Positions 7,524 to 51,614 are shown, counted from the stretch's first letter. The stretch is 58,132 nt of DNA from Candidatus Omnitrophota bacterium (GCA_014728075.1 WJMG01000071.1:1-58132), one strand, 5' to 3'. Notes: generated by a model from the sequence alone, not told the origin. A program made the numbers and translations.

Positions 7524-7666
7524 TACCGCGTACCGCAATCCGGGATGAAGAATGAAGGATGAGAAATGAGGAGATCGAGTGTGATAGGAAAAGCAAATAC
7601 AAGGATTGCTTATATTTCGTTCTTAATTACTCATTTTTCATTCAGGGTTTTAAGTCTAGATCTAAA
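7524..7666. repeat. Intergenic element of inverted 7-bp tandem repeats (ATGAAGA type)
   Basis: Left arm GATGAAG-AATGAAG-GATGAGA-AATGAGG (~7544-7571). Right arm TTCTTAA-TTACTCA-TTTTTCA-TTC (~7620-7643). Preceded by TACCGCG-TACCGCA. Confidence 0.65.
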
Positions 7667-7690
7667 ATGCCAGTTTAAATTGAGAGCGAC

Positions 7691-8701
7691 ATGAAACTAA
7701 GTGATTTTCAATACGATCTTCCCGGAGATCTTATAGCTCAGAGCCCTCTGGCCGATAGGCCTTCTTCCCGTCTTATGGTGCTTGAAAGGCGTGACAGCAG
7801 GTTTGAAGAGAAGCTCTTCAGGGATATCAAGGAATATCTAGCTCCGGGGGACTGCCTTGTCGTGAACAATACCAGAGTAATGCCTGTCAGGCTCCTGGGG
7901 AAAAGGGCTACCGGGGGAAAAGTAGAGATCTTCCTTCTGGATAACGCTTCCGAAAGGCCGGAGGCCCTGGTAAAGCCTTCGAAGAGGATCAAGCGGGGGG
8001 AGGTCGTATTTCTTGAAGGAGGGGTGAAAGCGAGGGTGCTTGAAAGGTCGAAGAACGGAAGGTTCGTTGAGTTCGACAGGCCCCTGGAGGATGTCCTGGA
8101 ACACGGACATGTGCCTTTGCCGCCGTATATACAAAGGGAGGATGAAGGGGCCGACAAGGAAAGGTACCAGACGGTCTACGCTTCTCGGGAAGGCGCTACG
8201 GCGGCCCCTACGGCGGGACTGCATTTTGACGCTGCTCTTCTGGAAGATATAGAGGAAAAAGGCGTGGAGATCGTAGAGGTGACGCTGCATACCGGCTACG
8301 GCACTTTCGCCCCCGTGAAAGCAGAGGATATTACCGCCCACCAGATGCATTCGGAGTGGTATGAATTGGGCAGGGATTCCGCCGCGGCGATAAACAGGGT
8401 GAAATCTTCCGGGGGAAGGGTATTCTGCGTGGGGACAACATCCGTGAGGGTGCTTGAGTCCTCCTGTGTTGACGGGGGCGTGGTAAGACCTTTCGCGGGA
8501 ACAACAAATCTCTTTATTTATCCGGGTTATGAGTTTAAAATAGTAGACGGACTGGTGACCAATTTCCATCTTCCCGGTTCGACGCTCCTGATGCTGGTGA
8601 GCGCTTTCGCGGGCAGGGAATTCGTGCTGGAGGCCTACGAGGAGGCGGTGAGGAGGCGGTTCAGGTTCTTCTCGTACGGTGACGCGATGTTGATAATCTG
8701 A
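7691..8701 (+). CDS. queA: S-adenosylmethionine:tRNA ribosyltransferase-isomerase
   Basis: PLPPYI, YQTVYA, AAPTAGLHF, VGTTSVR, TNFHLPGSTL and FFSYGDAM motifs. Confidence 0.98.
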   Translation: MKLSDFQYDLPGDLIAQSPLADRPSSRLMVLERRDSRFEEKLFRDIKEYLAPGDCLVVNNTRVMPVRLLGKRATGGKVEIFLLDNASERPEALVKPSKRIKRGEVVFLEGGVKARVLERSKNGRFVEFDRPLEDVLEHGHVPLPPYIQREDEGADKERYQTVYASREGATAAPTAGLHFDAALLEDIEEKGVEIVEVTLHTGYGTFAPVKAEDITAHQMHSEWYELGRDSAAAINRVKSSGGRVFCVGTTSVRVLESSCVDGGVVRPFAGTTNLFIYPGYEFKIVDGLVTNFHLPGSTLLMLVSAFAGREFVLEAYEEAVRRRFRFFSYGDAMLII

Positions 8702-8702
8702 A

Positions 8703-8734
8703 AAGCTTGAAAGGTTAAAGGGTTAAAAGGTCAA
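8703..8734 (+). repeat. Four 8-bp tandem repeats (AAGGTTAA type) directly after queA
   Basis: AAGCTTGA-AAGGTTAA-AGGGTTAA-AAGGTCAA. A similar tract lies at 51583-51614. Confidence 0.65.
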
Positions 8735-8737
8735 AAG

Positions 8738-8831
8738 AGAAGTGTCATCCCCGCAATGGGTTTGAGCGGGGGTCAAGTGAAAATATTTTTACCGGGTTCC
8801 CATCCGGGATTGTAGCGGGGATGACACTTCT
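8738..8831. repeat. REP/REPIN-like palindromic element (GTCATyCCCGC family)
   Basis: Perfect 17-bp inverted repeat AGAAGTGTCATCCCCGC (8738-8754) / GCGGGGATGACACTTCT (8815-8831). The left unit is nearly identical to 50050-50083. Confidence 0.75.
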
Positions 8832-8850
8832 TGATTTGCAAGGAGGAAAG

Positions 8851-9288
8851 ATGAGGAAGATAGTTGTTTTAACACTGGTTTTGGTCGGTTTGTTCTCGGC
8901 AAACGCCCACGCTCTGGCCGTGACGGCAAGGAGCGTGTCCGCCGGGACTTACGAGGACGGCGAATTCGATGCCGGCAACAGCGGGTTTGCCGCCGAATAC
9001 ATTATCGATGAGGCGGACGGCAAGGTCATACTGGACAGGATAATCATGAACGACCGTGAGGGAAAGATAGAGGAAGGCGCGGTTTACGAGATAACGAACG
9101 CGATGGTTTCCGAAGGGCTGTCAGCCCTTATGGTCTCGCGGAACAAGAAAGGCCAGAAGATAGTTACTGCCGTGAGGGAAGGGAGTATGGGGGCGTCTGA
9201 AATACTACTTATAGGCGAGGATTTTTACCAGTTCTGCCGCGCTTTCAACGGAAAATTCTATCTTGAATACGGAGAGGTCGAACGATGA
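8851..9288 (+). CDS. Hypothetical exported protein
   Basis: AGGAGG RBS and a signal peptide MRKIVVLTLVLVGLFSANAHA. The longer ORF start at 8821 lies inside the REP-like element. Confidence 0.7.
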   Translation: MRKIVVLTLVLVGLFSANAHALAVTARSVSAGTYEDGEFDAGNSGFAAEYIIDEADGKVILDRIIMNDREGKIEEGAVYEITNAMVSEGLSALMVSRNKKGQKIVTAVREGSMGASEILLIGEDFYQFCRAFNGKFYLEYGEVER

Positions 9289-9304
9289 ACAAAAGGAAGT
9301 CGTG

Positions 9305-13693: not shown

Positions 13694-14758
13694 ATGTTGC
13701 AATTATTGTTATCCTCGTTTTTACTTTCTATTGTTTTTACCTTTTCGGCTATTTATGTAGCGAAAAAAAAGGCAATACTTGATCGCCCATCCGAAAGGAA
13801 AATACACGAAAAACCTGTTCCGCTGCTCGGGGGGGTTGCCGTTTTTTCGGCTTTCGCCGCGGCCCTTCTGTTGAATTTCAGGTTCTCCGCCGAGCTGAAG
13901 GGAGTATGCATAGCTTCGTTCTTTATCATGGTCTCGGGCCTTTTAGATGACTTGAAAGACACCTCGGCTTCGTTCAGGCTGCTGGTGCAGGTACTTTGCG
14001 CCCTTGTCGTAGTGAAGTCGGGTGTTTTCCTCAGGATCATACCGGCGGATATCCCTTTTCAGTACCTGATTGAGGTTATAGTGACCGTTGTCTGGATAGT
14101 CGGGATAACCAACGCCGTGAACTTCATGGACGGAGCGGACGGTCTGGCCGCGGGCATGGCCTGTATCGTGTCGGCTACCTTTTTCGGCATAGCTTATTTC
14201 ACCGGGCAGGTCTATTTTTCTTTCATCAACCTCGCTCTATTGGGGGCATGTCTCGGATTCCTGGTATTCAACAAAAGGCCGGCGAGAATATTCCTGGGTG
14301 ACGCGGGAAGCAGTTTTCTGGGCTTCAGCCTCGGGGTTTTCGCCGTAATGGGTGAATGGGCGGAAAATAAGCCCATAGTCGCTTTAAGTATACCGCTTAT
14401 AGTGCTTGCTATCCCCATCTTCGATGTCATTTACATAACGGTCGCGAGGATAGGCCGGGGGAAGGTAAAAACTTTCAGGCAGTGGATAGAATATGTGGGA
14501 AAGGACCATCTGCATCACCGTCTCATGTCGCTGGGGTTCAGCCAGGGGCAGACGGTCTTTTTTATATTAAGCCTTAACGCCGCTCTCGCGCTGGGAGCGC
14601 TGGTGCTCAAAGGCGCATCGACTTATCAGGCGGTCTTGCTTCTTTTGCAGTGCGCCTCTTTTCTTCTCATCGTGACCGTGCTCATGCTTGCCGGAAGGAA
14701 TATGGGGGAAAAGAACGGTGTTAACGCGAGCCCTTCCGAAAGGGCGCCGGGAGAGTGA
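13694..14758 (+). CDS. WecA/TagO-like polyprenyl-phosphate HexNAc-1-phosphate transferase (MraY family)
   Basis: RKIHEKPVPLLGG, GLLDD, NAVNFMDGADGLA, IFLGDAGS and HLHHRL motifs. Confidence 0.93.
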   Translation: MLQLLLSSFLLSIVFTFSAIYVAKKKAILDRPSERKIHEKPVPLLGGVAVFSAFAAALLLNFRFSAELKGVCIASFFIMVSGLLDDLKDTSASFRLLVQVLCALVVVKSGVFLRIIPADIPFQYLIEVIVTVVWIVGITNAVNFMDGADGLAAGMACIVSATFFGIAYFTGQVYFSFINLALLGACLGFLVFNKRPARIFLGDAGSSFLGFSLGVFAVMGEWAENKPIVALSIPLIVLAIPIFDVIYITVARIGRGKVKTFRQWIEYVGKDHLHHRLMSLGFSQGQTVFFILSLNAALALGALVLKGASTYQAVLLLLQCASFLLIVTVLMLAGRNMGEKNGVNASPSERAPGE

Positions 14759-14759
14759 G

Positions 14760-15572
14760 ATGGAATTTCTGGGGTACTGGTCGCTTAGCGAAAAACCATT
14801 CGAGAATACATGCGACCCTAAATTCTTTTATTATTCGCCTTTTCACAAGGAAGCGCTCGTCAGGCTTATATATGTGATAAAACAGAACAAGGCCGGGGCG
14901 CTCCTTGCCGGCGACTACGGCACGGGAAAGACAACTATAGCCAACGAGCTTCTCTGCGAGATAGAAGAGAACGAGGATTACCGGAGCGCTTACATAAGCA
15001 ACCCCCTGTTGACTTCCAGGGAGCTGCTCCAGGAGATCAACTTTCAGCTCGGGGGAGGCGACAGCAGGGGCACGAAATTGAAGTTAAGGCGTTCAATAGA
15101 GGACAGGTTCAGAAAGATAGCGGATGAGGGCAACCACCCCATAGTCATCGTCGACGAGGCGCATCTGATAACCCGACGGGATGTGCTGGAGGAACTGAGG
15201 CTGATGATGAACCTTTATTACAAAAACAGCTTTCTGACCAGTATAATCATGATGGGACAGCTGGAGCTCAGGGACATAATAAACGAGATGCCCCAGTTCA
15301 AACAGAGGTTCGCCATGTACTACACCCTCAGGACCCTTGACAGGGAAGAGACGGCGCGTTACATTTCGCACAGGATGCAGGTCGCCGGGGTTTCCCGTTA
15401 TGTGTTTTCGGACGAGGCTCTGGAGCTGATCTTCGAGGCCTCGAGCGGGCGCCCCCGCCAGATAAACAACATATGCGATATGTCGCTGCTGGTAGGGTAC
15501 ATGAAGAACGCCGAACATATAGACGGTAATACGATCAGAGAGGTCGTGAAAGACCTGGGAGAGGAAGTGTGA
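14760..15572 (+). CDS. ExeA/GspA-family AAA ATPase
   Basis: EKPF...DPKFFY, Walker A GDYGTGKTT, Walker B IVIVDEAH, MGQLEL and GRPRQINNICD motifs. Confidence 0.9.
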   Translation: MEFLGYWSLSEKPFENTCDPKFFYYSPFHKEALVRLIYVIKQNKAGALLAGDYGTGKTTIANELLCEIEENEDYRSAYISNPLLTSRELLQEINFQLGGGDSRGTKLKLRRSIEDRFRKIADEGNHPIVIVDEAHLITRRDVLEELRLMMNLYYKNSFLTSIIMMGQLELRDIINEMPQFKQRFAMYYTLRTLDREETARYISHRMQVAGVSRYVFSDEALELIFEASSGRPRQINNICDMSLLVGYMKNAEHIDGNTIREVVKDLGEEV

Positions 15573-38797: not shown

Positions 38798-39490
38798 GTG
38801 GAGAATATGAAGATCGCAATACATCAACCTCAATATATGCCATGGCTCGGTTATTTTGACAAGATGGACCGGGCCGATGTTTTCGTCGTTCTTGACGATG
38901 TGCAGTTCAAGAAGAACGAATGGCAGAACAGGAACAGGATAAGGACCGCCGATTCCTGGCAGTGGATGACCGTTCCCGTGATACACCATTTCGGCCAGAC
39001 GATCAGCAGCGCGGCCATAGACAATCATTCTAACTGGAAGAAAAAGCATTTAAAGGCGCTGGAGTCCAATTACGCCCGTGCCTGTTTTTACGATGAGCAC
39101 ATGCCCTTTTTCAGGGAGATCTATTCGCGGGAATGGACTTCACTCTGCGAGCTTAATTGTTGTATAATAGACAGAATAAAGGCGTTAGTCGGGATAACGG
39201 CCGATACGCTGCGAAGCTCGTCCATGGAGATAACAGGTTCGAGTACGCGAAGACTGGCGGATATATGCCTCGCCCTGGAAGCCGATACTTATATTTCCGG
39301 AGCGGGGGGAAGGGATTACCTTGACCTTTCTCTTTTTGAAGAGGCCGGGATAAAGGTCGAGTTCCAGGAATACAGGCACCCGGTCTACGAACAGGTCTTT
39401 GAGGGGTTTTTCCCTTACATGTCAGCGGTAGATCTTTTGTTCTGTAAGGGGCCGGAGAGCCTGGAGATCATCAGGAGCGGGAGGAAGTAA
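38798..39490 (+). CDS. wbqC: WbqC family protein
   Basis: AIHQPQYMPWLGYFDK, DDVQF, WQNRNRI, YISGAGG and MSAVDLLF motifs. Confidence 0.93.
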   Translation: MENMKIAIHQPQYMPWLGYFDKMDRADVFVVLDDVQFKKNEWQNRNRIRTADSWQWMTVPVIHHFGQTISSAAIDNHSNWKKKHLKALESNYARACFYDEHMPFFREIYSREWTSLCELNCCIIDRIKALVGITADTLRSSSMEITGSSTRRLADICLALEADTYISGAGGRDYLDLSLFEEAGIKVEFQEYRHPVYEQVFEGFFPYMSAVDLLFCKGPESLEIIRSGRK

Positions 39491-39691
39491 CCGGCTTCGC
39501 CGGAAGGAAAAAGTTAAAAGTAAAAAGTTAAAAATATACGAGTTTGCTTTATGCTATGGAAAGTCCAGAGGCGTGAAAACAAGAATTATGATATTGTCCC
39601 AAAAGACACATTACCTTTTTACTTTTGCCTTTTTACTTTTTACTTAAATAAGCGGAATTCATAGTTTAGTTTTAAAACATAGGAGTCTACG
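39491..39691 (+). repeat. About 200-bp direct repeat A, containing AAAAGTA element copy 3 and the RBS
   Basis: Matches 40314-40511 with 8 mismatches over the first 180 nt (manual alignment). Confidence 0.92.
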
Positions 39692-40312: not shown

Positions 40313-40313
40313 A

Positions 40314-40511
40314 CCGGCTTCACCGGGAGGAAAAAGTTAAAAGTAAAAAGTTAAAAATATACGATTTTACTTTATGTTATGGAAAATCCAGGGGCGTGAA
40401 AACAAGAATTATAATATTGTCCCAAAAGACACATTACCTTTTTACTTTTGCCTTTTTACTTTTTACTTAAATAAGCGGAATTCATAGTTTAGTTTAAAAC
40501 AAGGAGTTTAC
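40314..40511 (+). repeat. About 200-bp direct repeat B, containing AAAAGTA element copy 4 and the RBS
   Basis: Near-identical to 39491-39691, offset by 823 bp. Confidence 0.92.
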
Positions 40512-41558: not shown

Positions 41559-41600
41559 ACGATATTTTGTCAACAGACCACAGTCGACAGACCATGTATT

Positions 41601-41641
41601 TTTTACTTGCCCCCGCTGAAACCCGTCGCGGGAATGACAAC
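41601..41641 (-). repeat. REP-like unit (GTCATyCCCGC family)
   Basis: TTTTACTTGCCCCCGCTGAAACCCGTCGCGGGAATGACAAC. Its reverse complement resembles 50048-50083 and 8743-8776. Confidence 0.7.
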
Positions 41642-41705
41642 TTTTTACTGGTGCACTGGTGCTCTTGTGATCTGGTGTACCAATAAGTGGCCCGTGGCCT
41701 TAATC

Positions 41706-41996
41706 TCTGCGGTCCGCGGTTCGCGATACGCGGTGCTAAGCTCCTAGACCTAAACCTAGACCTTTCTTTTGGCCTCTGTTATAATAATAGGTCCAGAAGA
41801 CGGTGTATCAATCTCTTTTATTTATAGTTATTTATCGCTAAAATATGGGTATCTTTATATCGATCACCCATATTTAAATTGTAAATGTAATACTTGCAAA
41901 GGTTTGAATAAAGCGTCTGCGGAACGCGGTTCGCGATGCGCGGTGCGAAGTTACGGGACCTAAACCTGTACCTTTGCCTTTCCCTCTGTTATAATA
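41706..41996 (+). repeat. 81-bp imperfect direct repeat (41706-41786 and 41916-41996), each copy ending in an extended -10 box
   Basis: 66 of 81 positions identical at a 210-bp offset. Each copy has CGCGGTT/CGCGATA heptamers, ACCTAA hexamers and TGTTATAAT. Confidence 0.8.
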
Positions 41997-42042: not shown

Positions 42043-42771
42043 ATGCAAAGCGACCTCAACGATATCCTCGACTGCAAGAATAGAAAACTCGACATTAACG
42101 GTAATTGCCTTGAGATGCTTGATACCTGCCGGGCGATGTGCTGTGGTATGTTCAATATAGATATCACCCCCGGGGAACGGATTTCCGGCAAATACGAATA
42201 TGAGGCTTTTTGCCTTATCAGTGGCAGGGTGTGCGAAGACGAAAGCTCCGCCTGTCCGAATCGCAAGTACAGGCTCAAAAAGAGGTCCGACGGTTATTGC
42301 GTCCACCTTGACGAAGACAGCCGCAAATGTTCTATATATGAAGACCGGCCTCAGGCATGCAGGGATTTCAACTGCAAAGGAGGATGGAAGATAGGATTTG
42401 ATTTTTCCGAAGCTGACAGAAAACTTGAGATGAAACTGGAAGAACTGAGCGATGACATGGTCTTTATGCTGAATCCCCTGATAGGGGTGAAGGGTGTTTT
42501 TTATTCAGAGGCCAGGCAAGAGGTGTCCTATCAGTTCAGACCTGTAAGGGGGTGTTTTGATACTATAGAAAAGGAAAAGATCCGGGAGGCGGGTCTGAAT
42601 TCTAAAGTCCTCGCCGATATTATCGGAAGTTTCGACGGTAACAGGACTTTGGGTGAGGTCTTTGGGGCTCTGTCCGATACGCAGGTTTCCAGGGAAGCTG
42701 TGGACAGGGTCGTGTGGAGTCTTTTGAAATGTTCTATAATAGTTTTCAAGCACCCCGGAGGTATGGCATGA
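42043..42771 (+). CDS. YkgJ/FliB-like Cys-cluster protein with a C-terminal PqqD/RRE-like winged helix
   Basis: CxxxxxxCRAMCC and CVHLD...CSIYEDRPQACRDFNC. The C-terminus FDGNRTLGEV...VDRVVWSLLKCSII resembles an RRE. Confidence 0.75.
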   Translation: MQSDLNDILDCKNRKLDINGNCLEMLDTCRAMCCGMFNIDITPGERISGKYEYEAFCLISGRVCEDESSACPNRKYRLKKRSDGYCVHLDEDSRKCSIYEDRPQACRDFNCKGGWKIGFDFSEADRKLEMKLEELSDDMVFMLNPLIGVKGVFYSEARQEVSYQFRPVRGCFDTIEKEKIREAGLNSKVLADIIGSFDGNRTLGEVFGALSDTQVSREAVDRVVWSLLKCSIIVFKHPGGMA

Positions 42772-43883
42772 AGCGCAGGATAGCTTTCCCCGAGCAGGTA
42801 GATATAGCTCTCACCGGTAAGTGCAATCTAAGGTGTAAGCACTGCAATACCACAGAGACCTGGGATGGCAGGGACGAGCTTTCTTTTGGAGAGGTGAAGG
42901 ACCTTCTCGATCAGCTGAAAGAACAGAAAATATTCCGTCTCGACCTTTTCGGAGGAGAACCTTTTTATCATCCCAGGTTCTTCAAGTACCTTGAACTTAT
43001 AAACAGGTACCCGATGAGGGTCACTATCCTTACCAACGGTACGCTTATAGACGAAGAAGCGGTAAGGCATCTCAAAAAACTCAGGTTTCTCGCCATAATC
43101 CAGATAAGTATAGACGGCTCGAAACCCGAAATTCACGATTGGCAGAGGGGCGAAGGCTCGTTTGAGAAAGCCATGAGGGGTGTAAGGCTCCTGTTGAGCA
43201 ACGGTGTGCCGGTTACAATAAAGGCGATCCTGAACTCCCATAACTACACCGATCTTGATAATATGGTTGAGCTTGCCAGGGGACTGGGGCTGCCCGGAAT
43301 GCATTTCGGAGATGCCGTGGAATGCGGTAAGGCCGCTGTTTATTCGGACCAGATGAGTTTTGAGTCAGAGGCGCACCGCAAGATCATGGAAAATGTTTTC
43401 GAGGTCAAGAAGAAGTATCCGGGGTTTGAGATCGGAGGTACTCTCGGCCAAAAAATAGATATGTTAAAAGACTTTTATAAGCAGGGCCCCGGGAGCGGGA
43501 CAAGAGGCGTTTTTTCGACCTGTCCGGCAGGGCACAGCACTTTGTCTATACGGTCTGACGGTAAGGTGGTGCCGTGTTCCGCTTTCTGGACATTGATATG
43601 CGGGGATGTCAGAAAGAGTTCACTGAAGGATATATGGGAGAATTCGGAAATGCTGAACAGGATAAGGGATCTTTCGGACGATAAGCTGGCACAGCATTGT
43701 TCGGATTGCGGTAAATGTGACTACATGAGCCATTGTAACGGCGGATGCAGGGCCGCGGCCTATTATATGTCAAATAATGACCTCCGGGGAATAGATCCTT
43801 CTACCTGTCTTGTTTTTTCGAATATGACAGGGACAAGGATCCCCCGGGAAAAAGTGCTTTCCGGGGAGAAGGGTAATAAATGA
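42768..43883 (+). CDS. scmE: Radical SAM/SPASM peptide maturase, SynChlorMet ScmE-like
   Basis: CNLRCKHC, GGEP and QISIDG. SPASM region CPAG...DGKVVPC...CGKCDYMSHCNGGC. Confidence 0.8.
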   Translation: MKRRIAFPEQVDIALTGKCNLRCKHCNTTETWDGRDELSFGEVKDLLDQLKEQKIFRLDLFGGEPFYHPRFFKYLELINRYPMRVTILTNGTLIDEEAVRHLKKLRFLAIIQISIDGSKPEIHDWQRGEGSFEKAMRGVRLLLSNGVPVTIKAILNSHNYTDLDNMVELARGLGLPGMHFGDAVECGKAAVYSDQMSFESEAHRKIMENVFEVKKKYPGFEIGGTLGQKIDMLKDFYKQGPGSGTRGVFSTCPAGHSTLSIRSDGKVVPCSAFWTLICGDVRKSSLKDIWENSEMLNRIRDLSDDKLAQHCSDCGKCDYMSHCNGGCRAAAYYMSNNDLRGIDPSTCLVFSNMTGTRIPREKVLSGEKGNK

Positions 43884-45010
43884 GTTTTTGTGACCGGTCT
43901 CAAAGAAGTGAAAACAGGACAGGAGACTTTCCCCTGGGAACGCTTTATGTAAACCCTACCCGATACTGTAATTTAAGGTGCCGTCACTGCTGGATAGCGC
44001 CTCCTGTAAGGGAAGAACTCGTTCCCGGTACTGAAGAGATGTCCATGGACGAAATAACAGCTATAGCGGAAGCGGCTAAAGAGGCGGGGCTGGGCAGCAT
44101 AAAACTTACGGGAGGAGAGCCTCTTTTAAGAAAAGATATAGGGGAGCTCTTGAGTTACTGCGTTTCCTCCGATATAAGTGTTTTTATGGAGACTAACGGC
44201 ACGCTTGTGTCTCGGGATGTCGCCCGCATGCTGGCTGATAACAATGTATCTCAGGTATCCGTAAGCCTGGACAGTATGTTCCCGGAAGTGCATGATCGGC
44301 TTCGAGGAAAGAAAGGCGCTTTTGAGAGATCCGTTTCGGGTATAAAGAACCTTATAGCTTCAGGAATACGACCGCAGGTCATCTTAAGCCTCTATAGGGA
44401 GAATCTGCGGGGGTTTGAGAGGTTCCTTGATTTTATGGAAGACCTGGGGGTTAACGATGTCAAGGTCAATATCATAACCCCGATGGGAAGGGGGCATGAC
44501 CTTCAGGAGAAAGGGATGGCCCCTGTTCTTGAAGAGGTCCTTGAGTTTTACCGACGGACGGAAAAAATGAGGAATAACTTTCGCGGTAACTGCGGGGTGG
44601 ATGTTCCTCCCGCTTTTCAGAAGGTGGAAGATATTAAGAAAAGGGGATGCCGTGTGTGCGGGATAAAGAGCATACTGGGCATACTCCCGAACGGTGATGT
44701 TTCTATATGCGGGGTAGGGTTTATGGAACGGGATATGATCATGGGTAATGTGAGAAAGGCTCCCGGGAAGATAAAGGATATCTGGAAGAACGACCCGATA
44801 GTCCGTTTTATAAGGGAGAAACTGCCTGAAGAGCTTGAAGGGGTTTGCGGCATCTGTGTATTCAGGAAAGTCTGCCTGGGGGGATGCAGGGCGGAGGTAT
44901 GGTACAACAATCATGACCTCAAGTCCCCGTTCTGGTTCTGTCAGAAAGCTTACGATAAGGGTCTGTTCCCTTCAACGAGACTTATGCCCGAGGAATTGAG
45001 AGTTCGATGA
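43880..45010 (+). CDS. scmF: Radical SAM/SPASM peptide maturase, SynChlorMet ScmF-like
   Basis: CNLRCRHCWIAP and KLTGGEP. SPASM region CRVCGIKSILG...ICGVG, CGICVFRKVCLGGC and PFWFCQKAYDKGLFPSTR. Confidence 0.87.
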   Translation: MSFCDRSQRSENRTGDFPLGTLYVNPTRYCNLRCRHCWIAPPVREELVPGTEEMSMDEITAIAEAAKEAGLGSIKLTGGEPLLRKDIGELLSYCVSSDISVFMETNGTLVSRDVARMLADNNVSQVSVSLDSMFPEVHDRLRGKKGAFERSVSGIKNLIASGIRPQVILSLYRENLRGFERFLDFMEDLGVNDVKVNIITPMGRGHDLQEKGMAPVLEEVLEFYRRTEKMRNNFRGNCGVDVPPAFQKVEDIKKRGCRVCGIKSILGILPNGDVSICGVGFMERDMIMGNVRKAPGKIKDIWKNDPIVRFIREKLPEELEGVCGICVFRKVCLGGCRAEVWYNNHDLKSPFWFCQKAYDKGLFPSTRLMPEELRVR

Positions 45011-45783
45011 AAAGTTTTGTTCTCGAAAATTTCGGAATAAGATGCGGGGTAAATCTTGTAAATTCCGACGAAGAGGTCCCTTTTAAAACTGCCGCGGCGT
45101 ACGGCTGTTCTGATGTTGATATATATGTTTACAGAAAGAACAGCGTGCTTCCTGATGAAATAAAAGAAAAATACCGCCGGCCGTTCTTTGAGGCTTTTGA
45201 TTACGGGGAAAAGAGCGCTTTTTGTCTCGCGGATAATTCAGTGCCGTTTGATTTTCTTCTGGGCTTTGAGTTCAATGAGTCTATCATGGCTTTTCAGAAT
45301 TCCCTGGACCTTGTATTCTTTCACGCGGCGTGCGTTGTAAAGGATGGCAGCGCCTTTCTTTTCGCCGCGCCGAGTGGCGGCGGAAAGAGCACTATAGCAT
45401 TGCTTGCCGAGAGGAACGGATTAGAGGTTCTGGACGACGATTCCTGTGTGATCAGGAAAGACAAGGGTGTGTATTTTGTTCAGTCTTTTCCGGTCGATGT
45501 TCTTGATCCTTCCGCGGAAAAGGGGTACAGGGTCGAAAAGGTATTTTTTCTCGAGAAGTCAGACAAGAACAACTTAAAGAGCATTTCGCGTCTGACAGCT
45601 CTTATGAGATCCATGTCCGAGGCAAACGATCTTTATCCGTGGCAATACCCCGTTTCTGAAAGAATGTCTGCCAGGAAAAGGATATTTTGCTTTTTGGATG
45701 AAATGCTCAAGACAGTACCTTTCAATGTCCTGGAATTCAGTATAGATGAGGGAATTTTTTCATGTTCAGGGATATTCTCTTAA
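45007..45783 (+). CDS. HPr-kinase-like P-loop protein (ScmC-like)
   Basis: FHAACV, APSGGGKST and VLDDD form the HprK-type catalytic core. Confidence 0.75.
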   Translation: MKSFVLENFGIRCGVNLVNSDEEVPFKTAAAYGCSDVDIYVYRKNSVLPDEIKEKYRRPFFEAFDYGEKSAFCLADNSVPFDFLLGFEFNESIMAFQNSLDLVFFHAACVVKDGSAFLFAAPSGGGKSTIALLAERNGLEVLDDDSCVIRKDKGVYFVQSFPVDVLDPSAEKGYRVEKVFFLEKSDKNNLKSISRLTALMRSMSEANDLYPWQYPVSERMSARKRIFCFLDEMLKTVPFNVLEFSIDEGIFSCSGIFS

Positions 45784-47498
45784 ATGTTAAATACCGGATA
45801 AATGACCTTAGGCCCCTCATGGGGGATGTAAAGGTCATATTCTTGTATTCTTCGCGTCTTTTGGCGAAATACAAAAAAGACCTGATGAAGATATCGTTGC
45901 TGAAAGGCCTGACTTTTCCGATAGGGATAGCCGGAATTTATATGACAAAGAATGTTCTGGATAAAGGTATCTTTGCCGGGGATTTCAGGGTTTTTCTCTT
46001 TCTTACGGTCCTTGTTCTTCTGGCCTACACTTTATTGCATGCTCTTTCCTATGTTGTGGAGAAATTCACCGCGAAAGTAAGAACGGCTTTTTCCGTAGAT
46101 GTAAACCGTGACCTGGCCCGGAGGCTTTTCGGGATGAATTATCTCGAGATAAGGAAGATGACATCTTCCGAGAACGCTTTCTTCCTGGGGTATGATTACG
46201 GGAATATCGAAGCTCTTATGTTCGGGGAGATCCCGTCGCTTATTTCAGTTCTGAAAATACCGGTTATTTTTGTTCTATCCGCGGTTATGAGCCTGCCGCT
46301 TACGCTTCTTGTTCTCCTGGCCGTTCCGTCGCTTGTGGTACACCTCTTATGGGCCGCAAAGCGCAGAGAGGTCTACAGGACCGAAGAGATCGAAAAGGTA
46401 AGGAGATACAATTCGTCCCTTCACGACCTCTTTCTTAACCTGAAACTCATTAAAAGCTCCGGAAAAGAGGACTGGGCCCTGTCCAGGGTAATGTCATTTT
46501 TCAGGGATAAGGTCAGGTTCTCGATGAAAACAGACCTTCTTTCCCGTAAAGCGCATTATATCGGCAGTGTTTTTATGCGCGTTAATACGTCTGTTTTCTG
46601 GATTTTCGGGGGGTATCTTATTATCAGGGGCAGTTTGACCTTCGGTTCTTTCAGCGCTGTTCTGATGTACATGGCGGTTCTCCTCGGGGAGATGGAGAAA
46701 GTAAGCAACGCGGTGCAGAGCCTTAACGAGGAAAAAGTATCTATCGCAAGATGTTCTTCTTTTATTAAAGAGATGTGTATTGCCGGAAAAGAGCGGCAAA
46801 AAGTGTTCGATGAAGGTATGTTTGAAAAGGGGCTGGAGTTCAGGGAAGTTTCTTTCGGCTATGAAGCGGGGAAACCCGTTCTTGAAGGTGTTTCTCTTTT
46901 TATCCCCCCGGCAGGCTGGTCCTTGATAAAAGGAGCTTCCGGCATAGGTAAGACGACGCTCTTAAGCCTTATTGTCAGGCTTTTTGAACCCTGGAAAGGC
47001 GAGATACTCGCGGGCGGAACAGATGTGGCACGAATAGATAAGGATGTTTTTTATAGAAATGTGTCTATCGTTCAGCAGGAGTCGTACATACTTAACGATA
47101 CCCTTGCCCGGAACATTTTTCTGGGAAACTCGTTTGACGACAGAGAGATGGAGAAGGTCCTGATGTGCGCGGGGTTAAGCGGGTTCGCGGAAGAACTTCC
47201 GGAAGGGTATGATACGATGCTTGAAGAGTCGGGAGCGGATCTTTCGGGCGGACAGCGGCAGCGTATATCAATAGCCAGGGCTTTAGCCGGAGGGCCTAAA
47301 GTCCTTGTGCTGGACGAAGCGACCTCTTTTGTGGATCCCGGAAAAGAAGAAGAGATCTTCGGTAAGATAAGGACAAGTTTTCCCGATATCCAGGTCATAT
47401 TCGTTACTCACAGGGAAACGGCCCGTAAGTACGCCGATCATGTTTTTGTTATGGAGAACGGCGCTGTTCTCAGCGAAAAAGAGAATGTTCAAATATAA
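45762..47498 (+). CDS. ABC exporter (TMD+NBD), no C39 peptidase domain
   Basis: N-terminal TM helices, GASGIGKTT, LSGGQRQR, VLDEAT and VTHR motifs. Confidence 0.93.
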   Translation: MFRDILLNVKYRINDLRPLMGDVKVIFLYSSRLLAKYKKDLMKISLLKGLTFPIGIAGIYMTKNVLDKGIFAGDFRVFLFLTVLVLLAYTLLHALSYVVEKFTAKVRTAFSVDVNRDLARRLFGMNYLEIRKMTSSENAFFLGYDYGNIEALMFGEIPSLISVLKIPVIFVLSAVMSLPLTLLVLLAVPSLVVHLLWAAKRREVYRTEEIEKVRRYNSSLHDLFLNLKLIKSSGKEDWALSRVMSFFRDKVRFSMKTDLLSRKAHYIGSVFMRVNTSVFWIFGGYLIIRGSLTFGSFSAVLMYMAVLLGEMEKVSNAVQSLNEEKVSIARCSSFIKEMCIAGKERQKVFDEGMFEKGLEFREVSFGYEAGKPVLEGVSLFIPPAGWSLIKGASGIGKTTLLSLIVRLFEPWKGEILAGGTDVARIDKDVFYRNVSIVQQESYILNDTLARNIFLGNSFDDREMEKVLMCAGLSGFAEELPEGYDTMLEESGADLSGGQRQRISIARALAGGPKVLVLDEATSFVDPGKEEEIFGKIRTSFPDIQVIFVTHRETARKYADHVFVMENGAVLSEKENVQI

Positions 47499-47509
47499 GG
47501 AGAGTTATT

Positions 47510-47782
47510 ATGGAAAGAAAATGTCCATTACGGAATCCGGATGTTGTTGTCAGAAAAGAGAAGGATGAGGCGCTGCTCTTCGATCCTTCCGACGGGAATA
47601 TGATGTGTATGAATTCAACCGGTATCTTTGTCTGGGATGAGTGCGACGGGAAGAGTTCCGCCGAAGAGATATCCCGGAAGATAGAGGAAGAGTTCGAGGT
47701 TTCTTCCGAAGTCGCGGAAAAGGATTGCCGGTCTTTTCTTGAAGAGCTGGAAAAGTCCGGATTTATAGGGTATGCTTTTTGA
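47510..47782 (+). CDS. PqqD family RiPP recognition element (ScmD-like)
   Basis: RNPDVVVRKE, ALLFDP, MNSTGIFVWDECDG and FLEELEKSGFI. Confidence 0.92.
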   Translation: MERKCPLRNPDVVVRKEKDEALLFDPSDGNMMCMNSTGIFVWDECDGKSSAEEISRKIEEEFEVSSEVAEKDCRSFLEELEKSGFIGYAF

Positions 47783-47795
47783 TCGGGAGGAAATT

Positions 47796-48092
47796 ATGGC
47801 TAAAAAGAAGAAAAAATACGAAGCGCCTATGGTATTCGATCTTGCAAACGTAGGCAGGGGCGCCCAGGCCCAGAGCTGCTCGTCTGGGCGTAATGCTAAC
47901 GCGTCATGTAAGGCCGGAAGAAGGGCGGGAAGTTTATGCAATGTAGGCTCTCAGGCCCTCTCCAGCTGTTCTAACGGCCCGGATCATGTGCCCGGAACCG
48001 ACTGTAAATCAGGCCCCAGCGCGTTGGGTAAGAAATGCTGGGGCGGAGGATACGCGGTAGGGCAGTGTAAAACGGGCGGACTGAAGGTATAG
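47796..48092 (+). CDS. RiPP precursor peptide (98 aa): YxxP leader plus seven CxxG repeats
   Basis: GGGAGG RBS. Leader KKKYEAPMVFDL. Cys at 28, 38, 48, 58, 70, 81 and 91, each in CxxG. Lies directly after PqqD. Confidence 0.88.
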   Translation: MAKKKKKYEAPMVFDLANVGRGAQAQSCSSGRNANASCKAGRRAGSLCNVGSQALSSCSNGPDHVPGTDCKSGPSALGKKCWGGGYAVGQCKTGGLKV

Positions 48093-48107
48093 TTGACGGC
48101 GGCTTAT

Positions 48108-48857
48108 ATGAGATTTACTGTTGAGGGCCAGAGCATGCGTCCTTTTCTGAGGGATCTGGATGTTTGTGTTTCCGAAAAAGTTTCTCCCGCAAAGATCTTC
48201 CCGGGAGACCTTGTCCTTTATGACAGCGAAGTCAGCGCTGAAGTTATTGTTCACAGGATCATTAAGATAGATAAAAGAAAGTCCGTTGCCTTTATAAAAG
48301 GCGATAACGAGCCCGGCATGGACGCGGCAGACAGGGTCCCGCTTGAGGATATTATGGGGAAGGTGCTGTTCGTGGAAAGGGGCTCGAGGGTTTTTGATCT
48401 CAATAAAAGATGGCGGAAGATCTGTGCCGGTATTATCGCTTTTCTTTCTCTCCGCGACCTTACGCCCCTTGTCGCTCAGAGAAGGTTCCTGAGCCCTCTT
48501 GTTCTTGCTGTTTCCGGGAACGGATTATATAAAATTTTCAGGGAGCGGTTTTACGCAAAGCTTCAATTCTGCTGCGTAAAAAAGGAAGGATATTATAAAG
48601 TTTTTTCATATCTGGGAAGAAGCATGAATGCTGAAGCTTTCCTGCAGCAATATTCTGAGGGGCATGTTACAGTCTCGTCATATATAAAATACCGCGACAG
48701 GAACAGCGGTTTCGCTAGGATATTTCTTGAGAAGATATTGAAAGTAGTGGACGAGAAATACGGAAAGGATTCTTGTGTTCATATACTTGAGGGGGAATTC
48801 AAGGAATTGATCTCCGGGTGCAAGGAAGTTGCTTCTTCCGAAAGGGTCTATTTATGA
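48108..48857 (+). CDS. S26/S24 signal-peptidase-like protein, soluble (alternative TTG start at 48093)
   Basis: GQSMRPFL (catalytic Ser), GDLVLY, VIVHRII and IKGDN. No N-terminal TM anchor. Confidence 0.8.
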   Translation: MRFTVEGQSMRPFLRDLDVCVSEKVSPAKIFPGDLVLYDSEVSAEVIVHRIIKIDKRKSVAFIKGDNEPGMDAADRVPLEDIMGKVLFVERGSRVFDLNKRWRKICAGIIAFLSLRDLTPLVAQRRFLSPLVLAVSGNGLYKIFRERFYAKLQFCCVKKEGYYKVFSYLGRSMNAEAFLQQYSEGHVTVSSYIKYRDRNSGFARIFLEKILKVVDEKYGKDSCVHILEGEFKELISGCKEVASSERVYL

Positions 48858-49948
48858 GCTCTCTCGCCCTAAATGCTTTTGAGGGAAAAGAGTTCTCTCC
48901 GGAAGAGGAGATAGTTTCTATCTGCGCGAGACAAAAATTGACCGAGCAGGATAAGCAAAATTATCGTTCTATTGCCGCATCCGGAAATATCGACTGGGAC
49001 AAGGTTTTAGGTGTCTCGGAGGAGAATCAGGTCACGCCTCTTGTTTACCGCAATCTGCAGGTCTTAAAGGGGTTTCCCGATAAGATCTTCATGTCTTTAA
49101 GGGAAAGCGCGGCCCGTACTATGGCGCGTAATACGCTTATATTATCGCGCATGGAAAAGTTTAGCCGCAAAGAGGACGCTCTTTTCCTGAAGGGGTTTCC
49201 TTTTGCTGTGGATGTCTATGAGGATCCTTCGTTGAGGGAGTTTTCCGATGTTGATGTTCTTGTCAGGGATATGGACGCGTTCGGACGGGTTCTTTCCGAA
49301 GAGGGTTTTCATCCTGACGATAACGAAGAGGATGACGGATACAGGTCTCAAAGGACATATGCCGATAAAGACGGTCTGGTGATAGATGCTCATGTGGATG
49401 CGATAGGGCGGAGGCTTCACAGTGAGATGACAGGTCTTGGCGAAGGCATGTGGGAAGGTGCCAGGCATCTTGAATACGGCGGCCTCAAGTTGAAGACGCC
49501 GGACCTGGAACACACTCTTATTTTTCAAGCGGTCCACCTTGCCATGCACCACGGTTTTTCAGGTCTAAAATGGTTAGTTGACATAAATGAGTTCGTAAGA
49601 AGATACGAGAACGAGATAGACTGGGAAAGGTTGTTAGAGCTTTGCTCGAAATATAAGGTCAAGAGGCCGGTTTATTATACGCTGTTGTTTACGCGAGATC
49701 TGTTCGATACGCCTGTCCCCGAAAAGGTGCTGGACAGGTTCTCCCGGGTGAGGAGGCCTCTGGACAGGTGGCTTTTCCGTAAGATTAAAAATAGTTTCGG
49801 GACAGATTATCTGGCCGAACTATTTATGTTCGATACGATAGCGGATACCGTGAAGTTCGTTTTCTTGAGCTTTGTAAAATATCCGGGACACTTTCTGTGT
49901 TTCGGGAGAATAGCGGGGAAAGTAGTCAGGGCGGCAGTAAGTAAATAG
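48854..49948 (+). CDS. Nucleotidyltransferase family protein (type found with lasso/PqqD clusters)
   Basis: LFLKG, LREFSDVDVLV, IDAH, HLAMHHG, LKWLVDI and IDW motifs. Confidence 0.85.
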   Translation: MSSLALNAFEGKEFSPEEEIVSICARQKLTEQDKQNYRSIAASGNIDWDKVLGVSEENQVTPLVYRNLQVLKGFPDKIFMSLRESAARTMARNTLILSRMEKFSRKEDALFLKGFPFAVDVYEDPSLREFSDVDVLVRDMDAFGRVLSEEGFHPDDNEEDDGYRSQRTYADKDGLVIDAHVDAIGRRLHSEMTGLGEGMWEGARHLEYGGLKLKTPDLEHTLIFQAVHLAMHHGFSGLKWLVDINEFVRRYENEIDWERLLELCSKYKVKRPVYYTLLFTRDLFDTPVPEKVLDRFSRVRRPLDRWLFRKIKNSFGTDYLAELFMFDTIADTVKFVFLSFVKYPGHFLCFGRIAGKVVRAAVSK

Positions 49949-49971: not shown

Positions 49972-50083
49972 TTTTACTTGATTCCCGCTTTCGCGGGAAT
50001 GACATTTTTTATTTTCACTTTTATGCTTTAAAAAAATAAAAGTAGAAGTTGTCATCCCCGCAATGGGTTTGAGCGGGGATCAA
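49972..50083. repeat. Pair of REP-like units around an AT-rich spacer (REPIN-like)
   Basis: TTGATTCCCGCTTTCGCGGGAATGACA (49978-50004) and TGTCATCCCCGCAATGGGTTTGAGCGGGGATCAA (50050-50083). Confidence 0.78.
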
Positions 50084-50106
50084 ACAAGAATAAGTTAGGC
50101 GGTTAG

Positions 50107-50694
50107 ATGGCTATGAATGAGGACTTATCGCATAACAACACGATGAAAAGAATGCTCTGGTGGGGAGCTATAACTCTCTATCTGGGGGTGGTGTATTCCA
50201 CTTTATCCATCGGCCCCGATATCTGGGACGGCATTAACGCGGCGCTGGGAGGTAAGGCCCTCGGAGTGCTTTACCTTCTGGCGATACTGGCCCTTGTCGC
50301 GGTAGTTTATTACATGGAGGAGATAAAAAAGGAGAAGAGGCCGCTTAACTATATGATCTTCTTTTTCCTGGCGGGACTTTTCTTTTTTATAATCTCTCTC
50401 CACGGCCATCCCGCGGAGAAGGTCCACATGGCGGAATACGGTCTCCTGGCCGTACTTGTATACAACGCGCTTAAGCTGGACATGGGACGGTACGACAGCC
50501 GGCTGTATATCCTGGGCGGCCTGATCTGTTCTCTGGCGGGCCTTGTAGATGAAATAATACAGTGGTATCTTCCCAACAGGTATTTTGACTGGCGGGATGT
50601 GGGCTTTAATGTAGCCGGCGCCCTGATAGCGCTGGCAATTATAAGGTTCAACATACTTAAGGGGCCGGAGAAGCGACCCGAGAGCGATTTTTGA
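50107..50694 (+). CDS. VanZ family membrane protein
   Basis: EKVHMAEYGLL, DEIIQWYLPNRYFDWRDVGFN and TM helices. Confidence 0.88.
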   Translation: MAMNEDLSHNNTMKRMLWWGAITLYLGVVYSTLSIGPDIWDGINAALGGKALGVLYLLAILALVAVVYYMEEIKKEKRPLNYMIFFFLAGLFFFIISLHGHPAEKVHMAEYGLLAVLVYNALKLDMGRYDSRLYILGGLICSLAGLVDEIIQWYLPNRYFDWRDVGFNVAGALIALAIIRFNILKGPEKRPESDF

Positions 50695-50744
50695 TGTAAG
50701 ATACCGTATATCCTTGCCTTATGGCGTGAAAAACAAGGTATTTC

Positions 50745-50774
50745 TTTACAAAAGGTACTTTGTAATGCTAAAAT
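50745..50774 (+). promoter_or_regulatory. Putative sigma70 promoter with an overlapping 7-6-7 palindrome
   Basis: TTTACA, 18 bp spacer, TG-C-TAAAAT. TTACAAA-N6-TTTGTAA lies at 50746-50765. Confidence 0.45.
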
Positions 50775-50830
50775 ACCATATCTTTTATTAACAGAATATT
50801 AACAGATCAAGATAAAGGTGCTTTGCCGAA

Positions 50831-51211
50831 ATGAACAAAGTCATTCTCGCTATTGACGATAACAGGGATTTCCTGGAGACTTTGAAGGATATACTGGAAC
50901 ACGAAGGCTACCGGGCGGTCCTTTTGACCGATCCTACCAAAACGGAAGAATATATAGAGAATTATTCGCCGGACCTTATAATACTCGATATCTTCATGCC
51001 AAAAAGGACCGGGTTCAATATACTGGAAGACCTTTCGGATAACGGCATGCACGAAGACATACCGAAGATATTCCTTACCTGCCTCGATAACCACATCGAA
51101 AAGATGACCGCCAGAGCCAGGGGCGCGTGTGAATATCTGACCAAACCTTTCGAGCCGGAAGAGCTTATAGAGGTGATAAGGGAATGCCTGGAAGGACAGA
51201 AGCAAAGGTAA
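50831..51211 (+). CDS. Single-domain response regulator (CheY-like)
   Basis: AIDDN, ILDIFMP, FLT and YLTKPF motifs. Confidence 0.93.
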   Translation: MNKVILAIDDNRDFLETLKDILEHEGYRAVLLTDPTKTEEYIENYSPDLIILDIFMPKRTGFNILEDLSDNGMHEDIPKIFLTCLDNHIEKMTARARGACEYLTKPFEPEELIEVIRECLEGQKQR

Positions 51212-51216
51212 GCGAT

Positions 51217-51579
51217 ATGGCCCGAGCGAAAAAAATAGTGATCGCGGACGATAACAGGGAGATGTGCGACCTGGTACAGGATATCTTTTCCGAGAACGGA
51301 TACGAGGTCGATTGTGTCCATAACGGATACGAGCTGATGTCCTACCTGGAGAACAATTCCCCTTCGGTGATAATACTGGACCTTATGATGCCGGAGAAGG
51401 ACGGCATATCGGTGCTGGGCTCCCTGAAACAGCTTTCGCCTTATTCCAGGATAATAATCTACACCGGCTACCAGGAATACGAGAAAAGCGTCTACGCCAG
51501 GGCGGTCGACAGGTTCCTGGTCAAGGGCAAGAGCATAGAGGAGCTCATAGAGGCCGTAGATGAGCTGGCGGTAGCGTAA
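51217..51579 (+). CDS. Single-domain response regulator
   Basis: IADDN, ILDLMMPEKDG, YTG and FLVK motifs. Confidence 0.92.
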   Translation: MARAKKIVIADDNREMCDLVQDIFSENGYEVDCVHNGYELMSYLENNSPSVIILDLMMPEKDGISVLGSLKQLSPYSRIIIYTGYQEYEKSVYARAVDRFLVKGKSIEELIEAVDELAVA

Positions 51580-51582
51580 GGT

Positions 51583-51614
51583 CAGGCTAAAGCGTTAAAA
51601 GGTTCAAGGGTTAA
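51583..51614 (+). repeat. Four 8-bp tandem repeats (AAGGTTAA type) upstream of tgt
   Basis: CAGGCTAA-AGCGTTAA-AAGGTTCA-AGGGTTAA, the same type and orientation as 8703-8734. Confidence 0.6.

Follow-up and report, generated by a model that had tools for sequence, protein, structure and literature searches.

The nearest described architecture to the repeats reported here, as far as the accessible text of the source goes, is that of the paired sites of Geobacter metallireducens (Aklujkar et al. 2009, PMC2700814), in which three to five tandem 7-9-mers lie in opposite-strand pairs at variable distance, between genes and in multiple copies; they were put forward, with no functional test in that text, as putative global regulator binding sites of classes 1-3. 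Intergenic tandem heptamers near gene ends, with a dominant 7-nt period, are also known from cyanobacteria, as short tandemly repeated repetitive (STRR) sequences, and from the Beggiatoaceae, where 169 direct sets and one indirect set of TAACTGA repeats were reported (MacGregor 2015, PMC4679880); the accessible parts of that paper and of a Nostoc preprint (10.1101/2022.06.06.494920) still present the role of these arrays as speculative. [quoted passage not shown] Here we describe a 58,132-base stretch of DNA from a Candidatus Omnitrophota bacterium (GCA_014728075.1, WJMG01000071.1:1-58132), called the window below, in which the gaps between genes are repeatedly filled by elements with arms of short tandem repeats, best called short-tandem-repeat-armed foldbacks. 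Very probably, they are non-coding, self-folding inserts built by slippage and added to operon junctions that have stayed intact, lineage-wide in occurrence and partly amplified genome by genome.

The window is the entire contig C62 of a 93-contig genome (G000; 2,103,215 bases, 51.6% G+C, with a strong GC skew), the completeness of which is rated at 94%. The assembly breaks at repeats, so all copy numbers given here are minimum estimates. Tandem arrays were collected with Tandem Repeats Finder (TRF; score >=30, overlapping rows merged). Genes were called crudely, as the longest open reading frames (ORFs) of at least 100 aa; "intergenic" sequence thus takes in small genes, and some strand calls are wrong. 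We obtained 1,015 merged arrays in the genome, with 7 as the commonest period. Period-7 arrays numbered 297, of which 218 fell within the ~11% of sequence outside the gene calls, whereas a third-order Markov shuffle of every contig gave 54 in the whole genome; the intergenic arrays of period 6 and period 8 numbered 59 and 74. Altogether, 369 intergenic arrays of period 6, 7, 8 or 14 were found in 219 of the 969 intergenic regions that measure 40 nt or more (~23%), where they make up 4.3% of the bases. Their units are degenerate and 6-8 nt long, mostly 7 nt, and were sorted into 163 types, 99 of them occurring once; families hold up to 23 arrays. Single-linkage merging of the unit types was abandoned as uninformative, most of them being chained into one cluster.

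With a local alignment score of 20 or more as the criterion, 113 of the 369 arrays had an inverted partner no more than 300 nt away, and 37 had a direct partner, compared with 14 in a reverse-only control and 47 in a complement-only control, the latter inflated by shared composition. Merging of the arms gave 82 paired elements, a lower bound: the pipeline recovered seven of the paired elements in the window and missed those at 29741 and 35018. The spacers between paired arms measure 1-234 nt, and the inverted pairs, which involve about one third of the arrays, are predicted to make imperfect hairpins of 60-150 nt around a variable core. The first-pass annotation, which had seen the window alone, described a single design of 3-5 degenerate units, usually followed by their reverse complement, built from at least six unrelated unit types. 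The median of 3.9 units per array and the excess of inverted partners over the control bear this out, and the design is genuine and well above chance. At every site named there, the unit types (ATGARRA, AGCGTAC, AAAAGTA, CGCGTAC, CGGGTWN and AGATYT) were as claimed when the sites were read, in agreement with TRF, and the unpaired half-arms at 7524, 8703, 41572, 41715, 41925 and 51583 were all present. Its broader claim that the architecture is kept while the sequence is not also stands, both within the genome and across genera, where the units are unrelated.

The likeness to G. metallireducens lies in this architecture alone, with no sequence in common: the units given in the accessible text of that source are GTTGCTYN, TCTCCGTS and MTYCTGA, the classes are few compared with the 163 unit types found here, and the phylum is another. 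The Beggiatoaceae and cyanobacterial arrays, as presented in the accessible parts of their sources, are mainly direct and built from one or a few units, whereas here inverted partners are preferred and the units are very diverse. A literature search, in one part of which no paper mentioned the group, brought up no description of such repeats in Omnitrophota.

We then compared the junctions with those of relatives, each from a different genus and sampled at 6-100 kb per genome. Among named genomes, QueA was best matched in one labelled "Candidatus Omnitrophota" (60% identity), followed by two labelled "uncultured Planctomycetia" (59% and 55%), which makes an Omnitrophota origin probable, and the closest identity was 60% among genome contigs, 61% among metagenome contigs and 64% among 30 relatives, the best QueA identity of the set. 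WbqC homologues occur in 20 of 40 relatives, and the gene order (GT4-)WbqC-PIG-L-DegT was maintained in all 11 relative loci fetched, which come from different genera. The overlap between WbqC and PIG-L amounts to 4 or 1 nt in eight of these 11 relatives (G007, G011, G015, G004, G013, G009, G014 and G005). The genes are separated by 52 nt in G027, 139 nt in G002 and 232 nt in G032 (approximate lengths, as are the other gaps in relatives), and by a 201-nt element in our genome; the gaps of G032 and G002 are packed with arrays, the units of which are unrelated to those found in our genome. The PIG-L-DegT junction measures 5-36 nt in four of 10 relatives, 112-547 nt in the other six and 199 nt in our genome. 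Among the six long gaps, those of G007, G015, G032 and G002 contain short-unit arrays, that of G013 a plain long hairpin, and that of G009 (locus L217) three tandem copies of a 44-nt unit with no 6-8-mers, which indicates that this site takes other kinds of repeat too. At the GT4-WbqC junction, the genes overlap in G005, and repeat-armed fillers are found in G007 and G013.

The combination of conserved order, overlapping junctions and unrelated fillers argues that the elements are additions and not the borders of cassettes. As read from these junctions, they are insertions or expansions into intact, formerly tight operon junctions, acquired independently in several genera with the gene order left untouched; the former tight junctions were probably translationally coupled. 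The first-pass annotation had proposed to look for filled and empty versions of the same site. Both kinds exist, but the part that varies is a non-coding element and not a gene, and the breakpoints of gene gain or loss expected at the arms did not appear, as synteny is unbroken there and the four-gene order is kept in the 11 relatives. Small ORFs enclosed by the arms, also expected, did not turn up, with no dedicated search made for partners more than 300 nt apart. As a separate observation, WbqC-like sugar-modifying domains also lie inside giant open frames of 2,988-5,154 codons in our genome (G000:C32:48891-49637) and in G014 (C69), G033 (C20) and G017 (C6).

The same design is found more widely in the group. 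In 20-kb samples from 20 relatives, we identified 87 arrays (period 6-8 or 14), of which 15 have an inverted partner (5 in the control), distributed over 7 of the 20 genomes, with arm units such as ATAGTCC, GTCGTTA, ATAGCGT, CGTATCG, AGTCCAT and GCCGGTTG. When more sequence was included, at least one inverted array was present in 14 of 23 sampled genomes. Arrays of unrelated units were also seen right behind the queA stop codon in our genome and, among 22 relatives inspected by eye, in G002, G013, G029 and G019.

Within the genome, the placement between stop codons and the next ribosome-binding site proposed by the first-pass annotation holds: the paired elements start at a median of 19 nt past the stop and end at a median of 35 nt ahead of the next start. 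Seventy paired elements have a called gene on either side; their junctions are co-directional in 56 cases, divergent in 8 and convergent in 6, compared with 597, 137 and 113 among all 847 intergenic regions of the background, so that the elements are not concentrated where terminators are needed and also appear at junctions that need none. They are not mainly a feature of the glycan locus either, to which the first-pass annotation had mostly assigned them, as the arrays are spread over intergenic regions genome-wide. This locus is locally richer (7 of 14 intergenic regions, some of these 14 being artefacts of the crude gene calls, versus 212 of 955 elsewhere; Fisher p 0.02), but this enrichment is post hoc because the window was chosen for these elements.

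The arms have a marked polarity. In 66 of 70 elements, and in 38 of 42 families of units, purines are commoner in the 5' arm than in its 3' counterpart. C makes up 11% of the left arms, and the right arms contain 11% G and 44% T, with U-rich 3' arms in the A/T-rich families. Since the elements are inverted repeats, this polarity is the same on both strands. Unpaired arrays adjoining stop codons are likewise oriented, 41 of them being purine-rich in the sense of the gene and 11 pyrimidine-rich, and in relatives the 5' arm holds more G than C in 30 arms versus 11 (both arms of an element counted). Background composition was rejected as the cause of the polarity, as the purine content outside arrays (54% after stops, 51-52% at 21-60 nt before starts) is too weakly biased. 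The sense strand folds better in 34 and worse in 21 of the 56 co-directional elements (Wilcoxon p 0.017). The arms pair because both consist of one unit family; the idea that they co-evolve was dropped, neither arm length nor a comparison of own- and cross-partner pairing having given a signal. A scan for promoter and terminator consensus sequences did no better than shuffles (32 matches vs 24.7 ± 5.4).

Sequence is shared between intergenic regions: 226 of the 969 match another region over 50 nt or more, and 181 of these 226 belong to a single linked network. The AGATYT element gave 22 BLAST matches in our genome (19 of at least 60 nt, counting the query) and 17 copies by pattern, among which 4 lie in sense and 7 in antisense orientation, and BLAST gave no match in 40 relatives; by this comparison of sequences, the family is amplified solely in our genome. 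Its core had been considered a UUCG tetraloop, a reading that was dropped, as it is a GCC-YTC-GGC triloop hairpin found in both orientations relative to genes. Family A, which is AAAAGTA-armed, sits in a composite repeat of ~230 nt. Its copies are 93-98% identical; four or more are internal and as many as eight others are truncated where a contig ends, several contigs breaking off within the repeat. A GGTGCTC array flanking near-identical family A copies varies in length and sequence, as expected from slippage. The AAAAGTA arms were found with at least 3-4 different cores, and between paralogous composite regions entire modules of 42-352 nt are present or absent (16 indel candidates). Some gaps of 500-600 nt (C12:1-620, C38:3100-3610 and C38:6240-6745) consist of serial or nested chains of at least six different short-unit arrays and foldbacks, and these chained regions repeat as composites on several contigs.

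In the window, nearly all genes are on the + strand. They comprise queA, a polysaccharide locus (~13.7-41.6 kb) encoding an initiating transferase of the GT4 family, proteins that resemble Wza/Wzc, Wzy and Wzx, numerous GT2, GT4 and GT9 glycosyltransferases, WbqC, PIG-L and DegT, then a radical-SAM/SPASM-PqqD-ABC cluster (42-50 kb), followed by tgt, yajC and secDF. RNA folding was predicted for 14 window regions, each against 200 dinucleotide shuffles. Nine of them had a z-score of -3.3 or lower, with 0-1 of the 200 shuffles as stable, and the other five gave -0.82, -2.19, -2.02, +0.23 and -1.26. Between a SpoIID-like gene and queA (7524-7650), a CGCGTAC-type half-arm (7524-7537) is followed by a foldback made of ATGARRA units (7543-7571) and their reverse complement (~7620-7647), with a predicted fold of -36.9 kcal/mol (z -3.89, a stability that none of the 200 shuffles reached). 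Right behind the queA stop (8701-8840, + strand), an unpaired AAAGGTT-type array recognized by TRF (8701-8737) precedes an imperfect hairpin of ~95 nt (GTGTCATCCCCGC...GCGGGGATGACAC; z -3.91), the core of which was seen again by BLAST at 50038-50083 and on other contigs. A dispersed hairpin family with the core GTCATCCCCGC...GCGGGGATGAC was noted in this connection, at 8738-8832 and 50038-50083 in the window and on at least six other contigs.

Further foldbacks are distributed along the polysaccharide locus. The first (20905-21035), between the Wzy-like and Wzx-like genes, combines an AGGCTAT array (20912-20943) with AGCGTAC units (20951-20978) and their reverse-complement arm (21000-21030); its z-score is just -0.82 for the whole region because the inner hairpin alone is predicted to form. 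An AAAAGTA-armed foldback between two GT4 genes (28426-28556; z -4.22) has a core with 78% identity to that of the multi-copy family A (BLAST). A CGCGTAC-armed foldback occupies the gap between a GT4 and a GT9 gene (29741-29832; -40.8 kcal/mol, z -3.29), a CGGGTWN-armed one lies between a GT4 gene and a double-GT4 gene (35018-35092; z -3.93), an AGATYT-armed one contains the GCC-YTC-GGC core hairpin (37424-37503; z -4.10), and another with AAAAGTA arms fills the GT4-WbqC junction (38658-38786; z -3.88). The entire WbqC-PIG-L intergenic region (39490-39690, + strand; z -3.68) is made up of a small GC hairpin, an AAAAGTA foldback and a leader with a ribosome-binding site, and a second copy fills the PIG-L-DegT junction (40313-40511, + strand; z -2.19). 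The two copies are 94.5% identical by BLAST, and each covers its full intergenic region. The match runs from the last base of the stop codon to one base before the next start, which means that each copy carries its own leader and ribosome-binding site.

Further downstream on the + strand, an ACAGACC-type array, a CCCGC...GCGGG hairpin and a GGTGCNCT array follow one another at 41565-41700 (TRF, BLAST; z -2.02), in an element akin to a longer dispersed one on C68 and C6. Two direct copies, 81% identical, are found at 41706-41996 (+ strand; 41706-41786 and 41916-41996), each with a GCGGTNC array, a CCTARA array and TGTTATAAT. They have no inverted partner, and the half-arms at 41700 (z +0.23) and 41905 (z -1.26) lack structure. 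These 81-nt copies are upstream of the radical-SAM/SPASM-PqqD-ABC cluster (42043-49948), and each ends in TGTTATAAT, which resembles an extended -10 box, with a -35-like hexamer provided by the CCTARA array; the consensus scan gave a promoter-like match at 41757-41785. The two copies may thus be tandem promoter modules made from short-repeat arrays. Finally, after a response-regulator gene, an unpaired AAAGGTT-type array (51583-51617) is followed by hairpins (51583-51720, + strand; -63.6 kcal/mol, z -6.66). At 51620-51708, a canonical-looking terminator with a GC-rich stem and a T-run (51620-51650) precedes a perfect hairpin of ~19 bp just upstream of tgt, indicating that ordinary terminators coexist with the repeat-armed elements.

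The genome was also searched for enzymes that could act on such elements. As the first-pass annotation had stated, no recombinase is encoded in the window, and those found in the rest of the genome were XerC and XerD only (two PF00589 matches; XerD 376.8 bits for a cut-off of 329.6, XerC 338.3 bits for a cut-off of 335.15), with the NCBIfam integron-integrase models far under their cut-offs, along with two REP-associated tyrosine transposase (RAYT)-like Y1 genes and one IS110 transposase, REP standing for repetitive extragenic palindrome. An AAA_22 ATPase with weak similarity to TniB (E 1e-6), which is not a recombinase, is encoded at 14688-15572 within the polysaccharide locus. The RAYT-model matches scored 80.6 bits (cut-off 80) and 61.2 bits, for genes at G000:C3:558-1229 (locus L194) and G000:C66:49109-49597 (locus L193, 1462-1950) that share a conserved upstream stretch. 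These genes are flanked on both sides by palindromes of their own, CCTATCCSGGATAGG, in 17-nt arrays consisting of TACCTATCCCGGATAGG, and GTACCSGGTAC, with no short-unit arrays there; GTACCSGGTAC occurs in 51 copies for ~1 expected, often as doublets 23 nt apart, in the manner of the hairpin-forming REP doublets called REPINs, and none of these palindromes is in the window. The RAYT/Y1 family is present in 35 of the 41 genomes of the group, with no evident relation to the arrays, and G029 has arrays and no Y1 match. In G016, at least 15 copies of one 142-codon Y1 (IS200-like) transposase, with equal scores and mostly the same offset from a contig end, look like a recent burst. Searches of the 94%-complete assembly for rve, DDE_Tnp_1 and TnpB genes gave no match. 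The IS110 and two Y1 genes are not flanked by repeat arms, and a parent insertion sequence could lie in unassembled repeats.

With regard to RNA processing, in which the first-pass annotation had suggested that the hairpins might take part, the genome encodes Rho, and RNase III (PF00636, PF14622) was not found in the 94%-complete assembly. The same search detected RNase III in five of 40 relatives (G007, G021, G028, G038 and G040), and in 8 of 14 known genomes used as a control; if rnc has been lost from nearly the whole lineage, this would be unusual among bacteria. Per 10 kb, four of the five genomes with RNase III had 0-0.15 inverted arrays, and those without it had 0-1.75.

The elements also differ from the known classes. 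They are similar to REPs, bacterial interspersed mosaic elements (BIMEs) and REPINs in being intergenic, hairpin-forming and multi-copy, with mosaic modules, in a genome that has RAYT-like genes. However, a REP is a single imperfect palindrome of 20-40 nt with a conserved end, beside its own RAYT, whereas the arms here are arrays of 6-8-nt units, mostly non-palindromic, and no cognate RAYT flanked by the same repeat was found. CRISPR arrays have direct repeats of 24-48 nt with unique spacers of similar length; here the 6-8-nt units are contiguous and the partner array is inverted. Integron attC sites resemble them as imperfect inverted repeats that lie at gene 3' ends and keep their structure but not their sequence, but the two motifs of the attC core (RYYYAAC...GTTRRRY) occurred together within 35 nt of the ends in 0 of the 82 paired elements, no integron integrase was found, the elements are spread genome-wide instead of forming one array, and synteny is kept. 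The exclusion of CRISPR, attC and REP by the first-pass annotation thus held when their definitions were tested, and Rfam 15 gave no match at the gathering score for the whole window on both strands. Drosophila foldback transposons have long inverted arms of short tandem repeats, with unequal arms and a variable centre. They are eukaryotic and kilobase-sized, with known or suspected transposases, and the likeness is in architecture alone. Among the MITEs (Correia, Chunjie, Nezha) and BOX elements, the common points with the elements described here are the size of 80-250 nt, the terminal inverted repeats, which are imperfect in our case, the stable predicted folds and the tolerance in operons, and the pneumococcal BOX is modular with a tandemly repeated middle module (accessible sections of PMC10969869 and PMC3184786). 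The fixed ends, target-site duplications and related insertion sequence that these sections attribute to MITEs were not found here: in ~8 AGATYT copies inspected by eye, there were no flanking direct repeats of shared length, the element ends being fuzzy because the arms differ in unit number. Conversely, arms made of tandem 6-8-mers are not mentioned in the accessible sections of the two reviews.

Several explanations can be weighed against this evidence. The elements could be selected RNA elements of the REP or BIME kind, which would stop 3'-5' exonucleases, attenuate or terminate transcription both ways and set the relative expression of cistrons. Their location in the stretch from a stop codon to the following ribosome-binding site (medians 19 and 35 nt), the strong predicted hairpins, the pyrimidine- and U-rich 3' arm of both transcripts (T 44%), as in bidirectional terminators, the orientation of unpaired arrays to the adjoining gene (41 vs 11) and the stabler sense fold (34 vs 21) would all fit such a role. 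We nevertheless consider it unlikely, if not lightly dismissed, as the junctions that require a terminator are not enriched (6 convergent and 8 divergent for 56 tandem ones), canonical terminators such as that at 51620-51650 exist separately, and the arms lack co-variation, with 4 sense and 7 antisense copies in the AGATYT family; moreover, the junctions are overlapping or short in most relatives, so the function would be dispensable. An improbable alternative is that of MITE- or REPIN-type miniature mobile elements, with the arms as terminal inverted repeats, moved as single-stranded hairpins by a Y1/RAYT-like or other enzyme. The dispersed families at 93-98% identity with contigs breaking inside, the family private to the genome, the arms common to different cores, the presence or absence of whole modules and the two RAYT-like genes, from a family found in 35 of the 41 genomes, could all be explained in this way. 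This would not account for the lack of flanking direct repeats in the ~8 AGATYT copies inspected by eye, for RAYT genes that are flanked by CCTATCCSGGATAGG and GTACCSGGTAC and not by arrays, for the arrays of G029, which has no Y1 match, or for the failure to find rve, DDE_Tnp_1 or TnpB in the 94%-complete assembly, and the 99 of 163 unit types that occur once fit local birth better than transposition.

The arrays could also act as DNA, bound by nucleoid proteins (IHF/HU) or by global regulators, as proposed for G. metallireducens in the accessible text of PMC2700814. The layout equals that of the class 1-3 sites, and the unit sequence is kept within a family while the arms do not co-vary; yet 163 unit types in a 2.1-Mb genome are too many for specific binders, the same junction has entirely different units between genera, and the orientation of the unpaired arrays to the gene points to the transcript and not the duplex, which makes this explanation very improbable. 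The proposal of the first-pass annotation that the arms are recombination or insertion sites around single-gene cassettes is largely refuted and now barely credible. It was suggested by the single genes of the 37.5-41.6 kb region, each flanked by elements, by the location of PIG-L between two 200-nt copies with 94.5% identity and by a type of locus that is often variable. Against it stand the four-gene order in 11 genera, with mostly overlapping junctions, a recombinase set limited to XerC and XerD, under the integron-integrase cut-offs, the 0 of 82 attC cores and the occurrence of elements in 23% of intergenic regions of every kind.

Our preferred reading, that the elements are self-folding intercistronic fillers tolerated as hairpins, blends their nature, which we regard as very probable as stated above, with a mechanism, and taken as a whole it is evenly poised between right and wrong. 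The arrays would be created and resized by slipped-strand copying, the second arm would result from an inverted duplication around a small core hairpin, and whole modules would spread by copying between intergenic regions, via recombination or some hairpin-recognising enzyme. The mechanism of tolerance, which calls on hairpin shape, the order of the arms relative to Rho and the missing RNase III, is tentative and on balance doubtful. An element would be transcribed with its operon, the G- and purine-rich, C-poor 5' arm emerging first and pairing at once with the C- and pyrimidine-rich 3' arm. The insert would be folded away as a hairpin, keeping the upstream stop and the next ribosome-binding site near each other and the neighbouring RNA undisturbed. 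The C-rich, G-poor arm, which would attract Rho, would be paired on emergence and so hidden from it, and the long hairpins would be spared from cleavage because most of the lineage is without the double-strand-specific RNase III. The conserved architecture might then be the shape that selection has let pass, and not the recognition site of a dedicated system.

Several points weigh against this reading. Slippage and inverted duplication are deduced from the pattern, and the junction gaps of the relatives are approximate because start codons were set by a simple rule. Arm lengths are weakly correlated (r 0.20, p 0.22, 38 elements), and an arm pairs with its own partner no better than with same-family partners elsewhere, so that selection for pairing at a fine scale is unsupported. 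The orientation weakens in arrays adjoining start codons (16 purine-rich vs 22 pyrimidine-rich) and in the relatives, where purine polarity is seen in 24 arms versus 17, and the GC skew of the genome could yield the bias toward the sense fold. Regarding RNase III, G007 has a 177-aa RNase III-like gene and many inverted arrays (0.62 per 10 kb), while G008, G011, G017, G020, G024 and G027, all RNase III-negative, have zero inverted arrays in 20-80 kb; the link between this enzyme and the arrays is at most permissive, a weak trend among genomes that are not independent.

A further hypothesis is that the lineage has a generator of its own, which would make hairpin elements de novo at gene junctions by slippage followed by snap-back or template-switch mirroring, possibly aided by Y1 enzymes, as a prokaryotic counterpart of foldback elements; the loss of RNase III would permit their spread, and Rho would set the G-first polarity. 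We consider this speculative and unlikely.

In practice, these elements break assemblies and may mislead annotation by appearing CRISPR-like, attC-like or small-RNA-like. The origin and function of REPs, BIMEs, MITEs and the heptamer arrays of cyanobacteria and Geobacter are still unsettled decades after these repeats became known, and this lineage combines hairpin-forming intergenic repeats and heptamer arrays in one design. It also offers a natural experiment, in which one operon junction that overlaps in most genera has acquired fillers of unrelated units, independently, in three genera or more. This opens the questions of how such elements are born, why a 7-nt unit dominates, what constrains their polarity, and what part the loss of RNase III or the presence of Rho may have in their accumulation.

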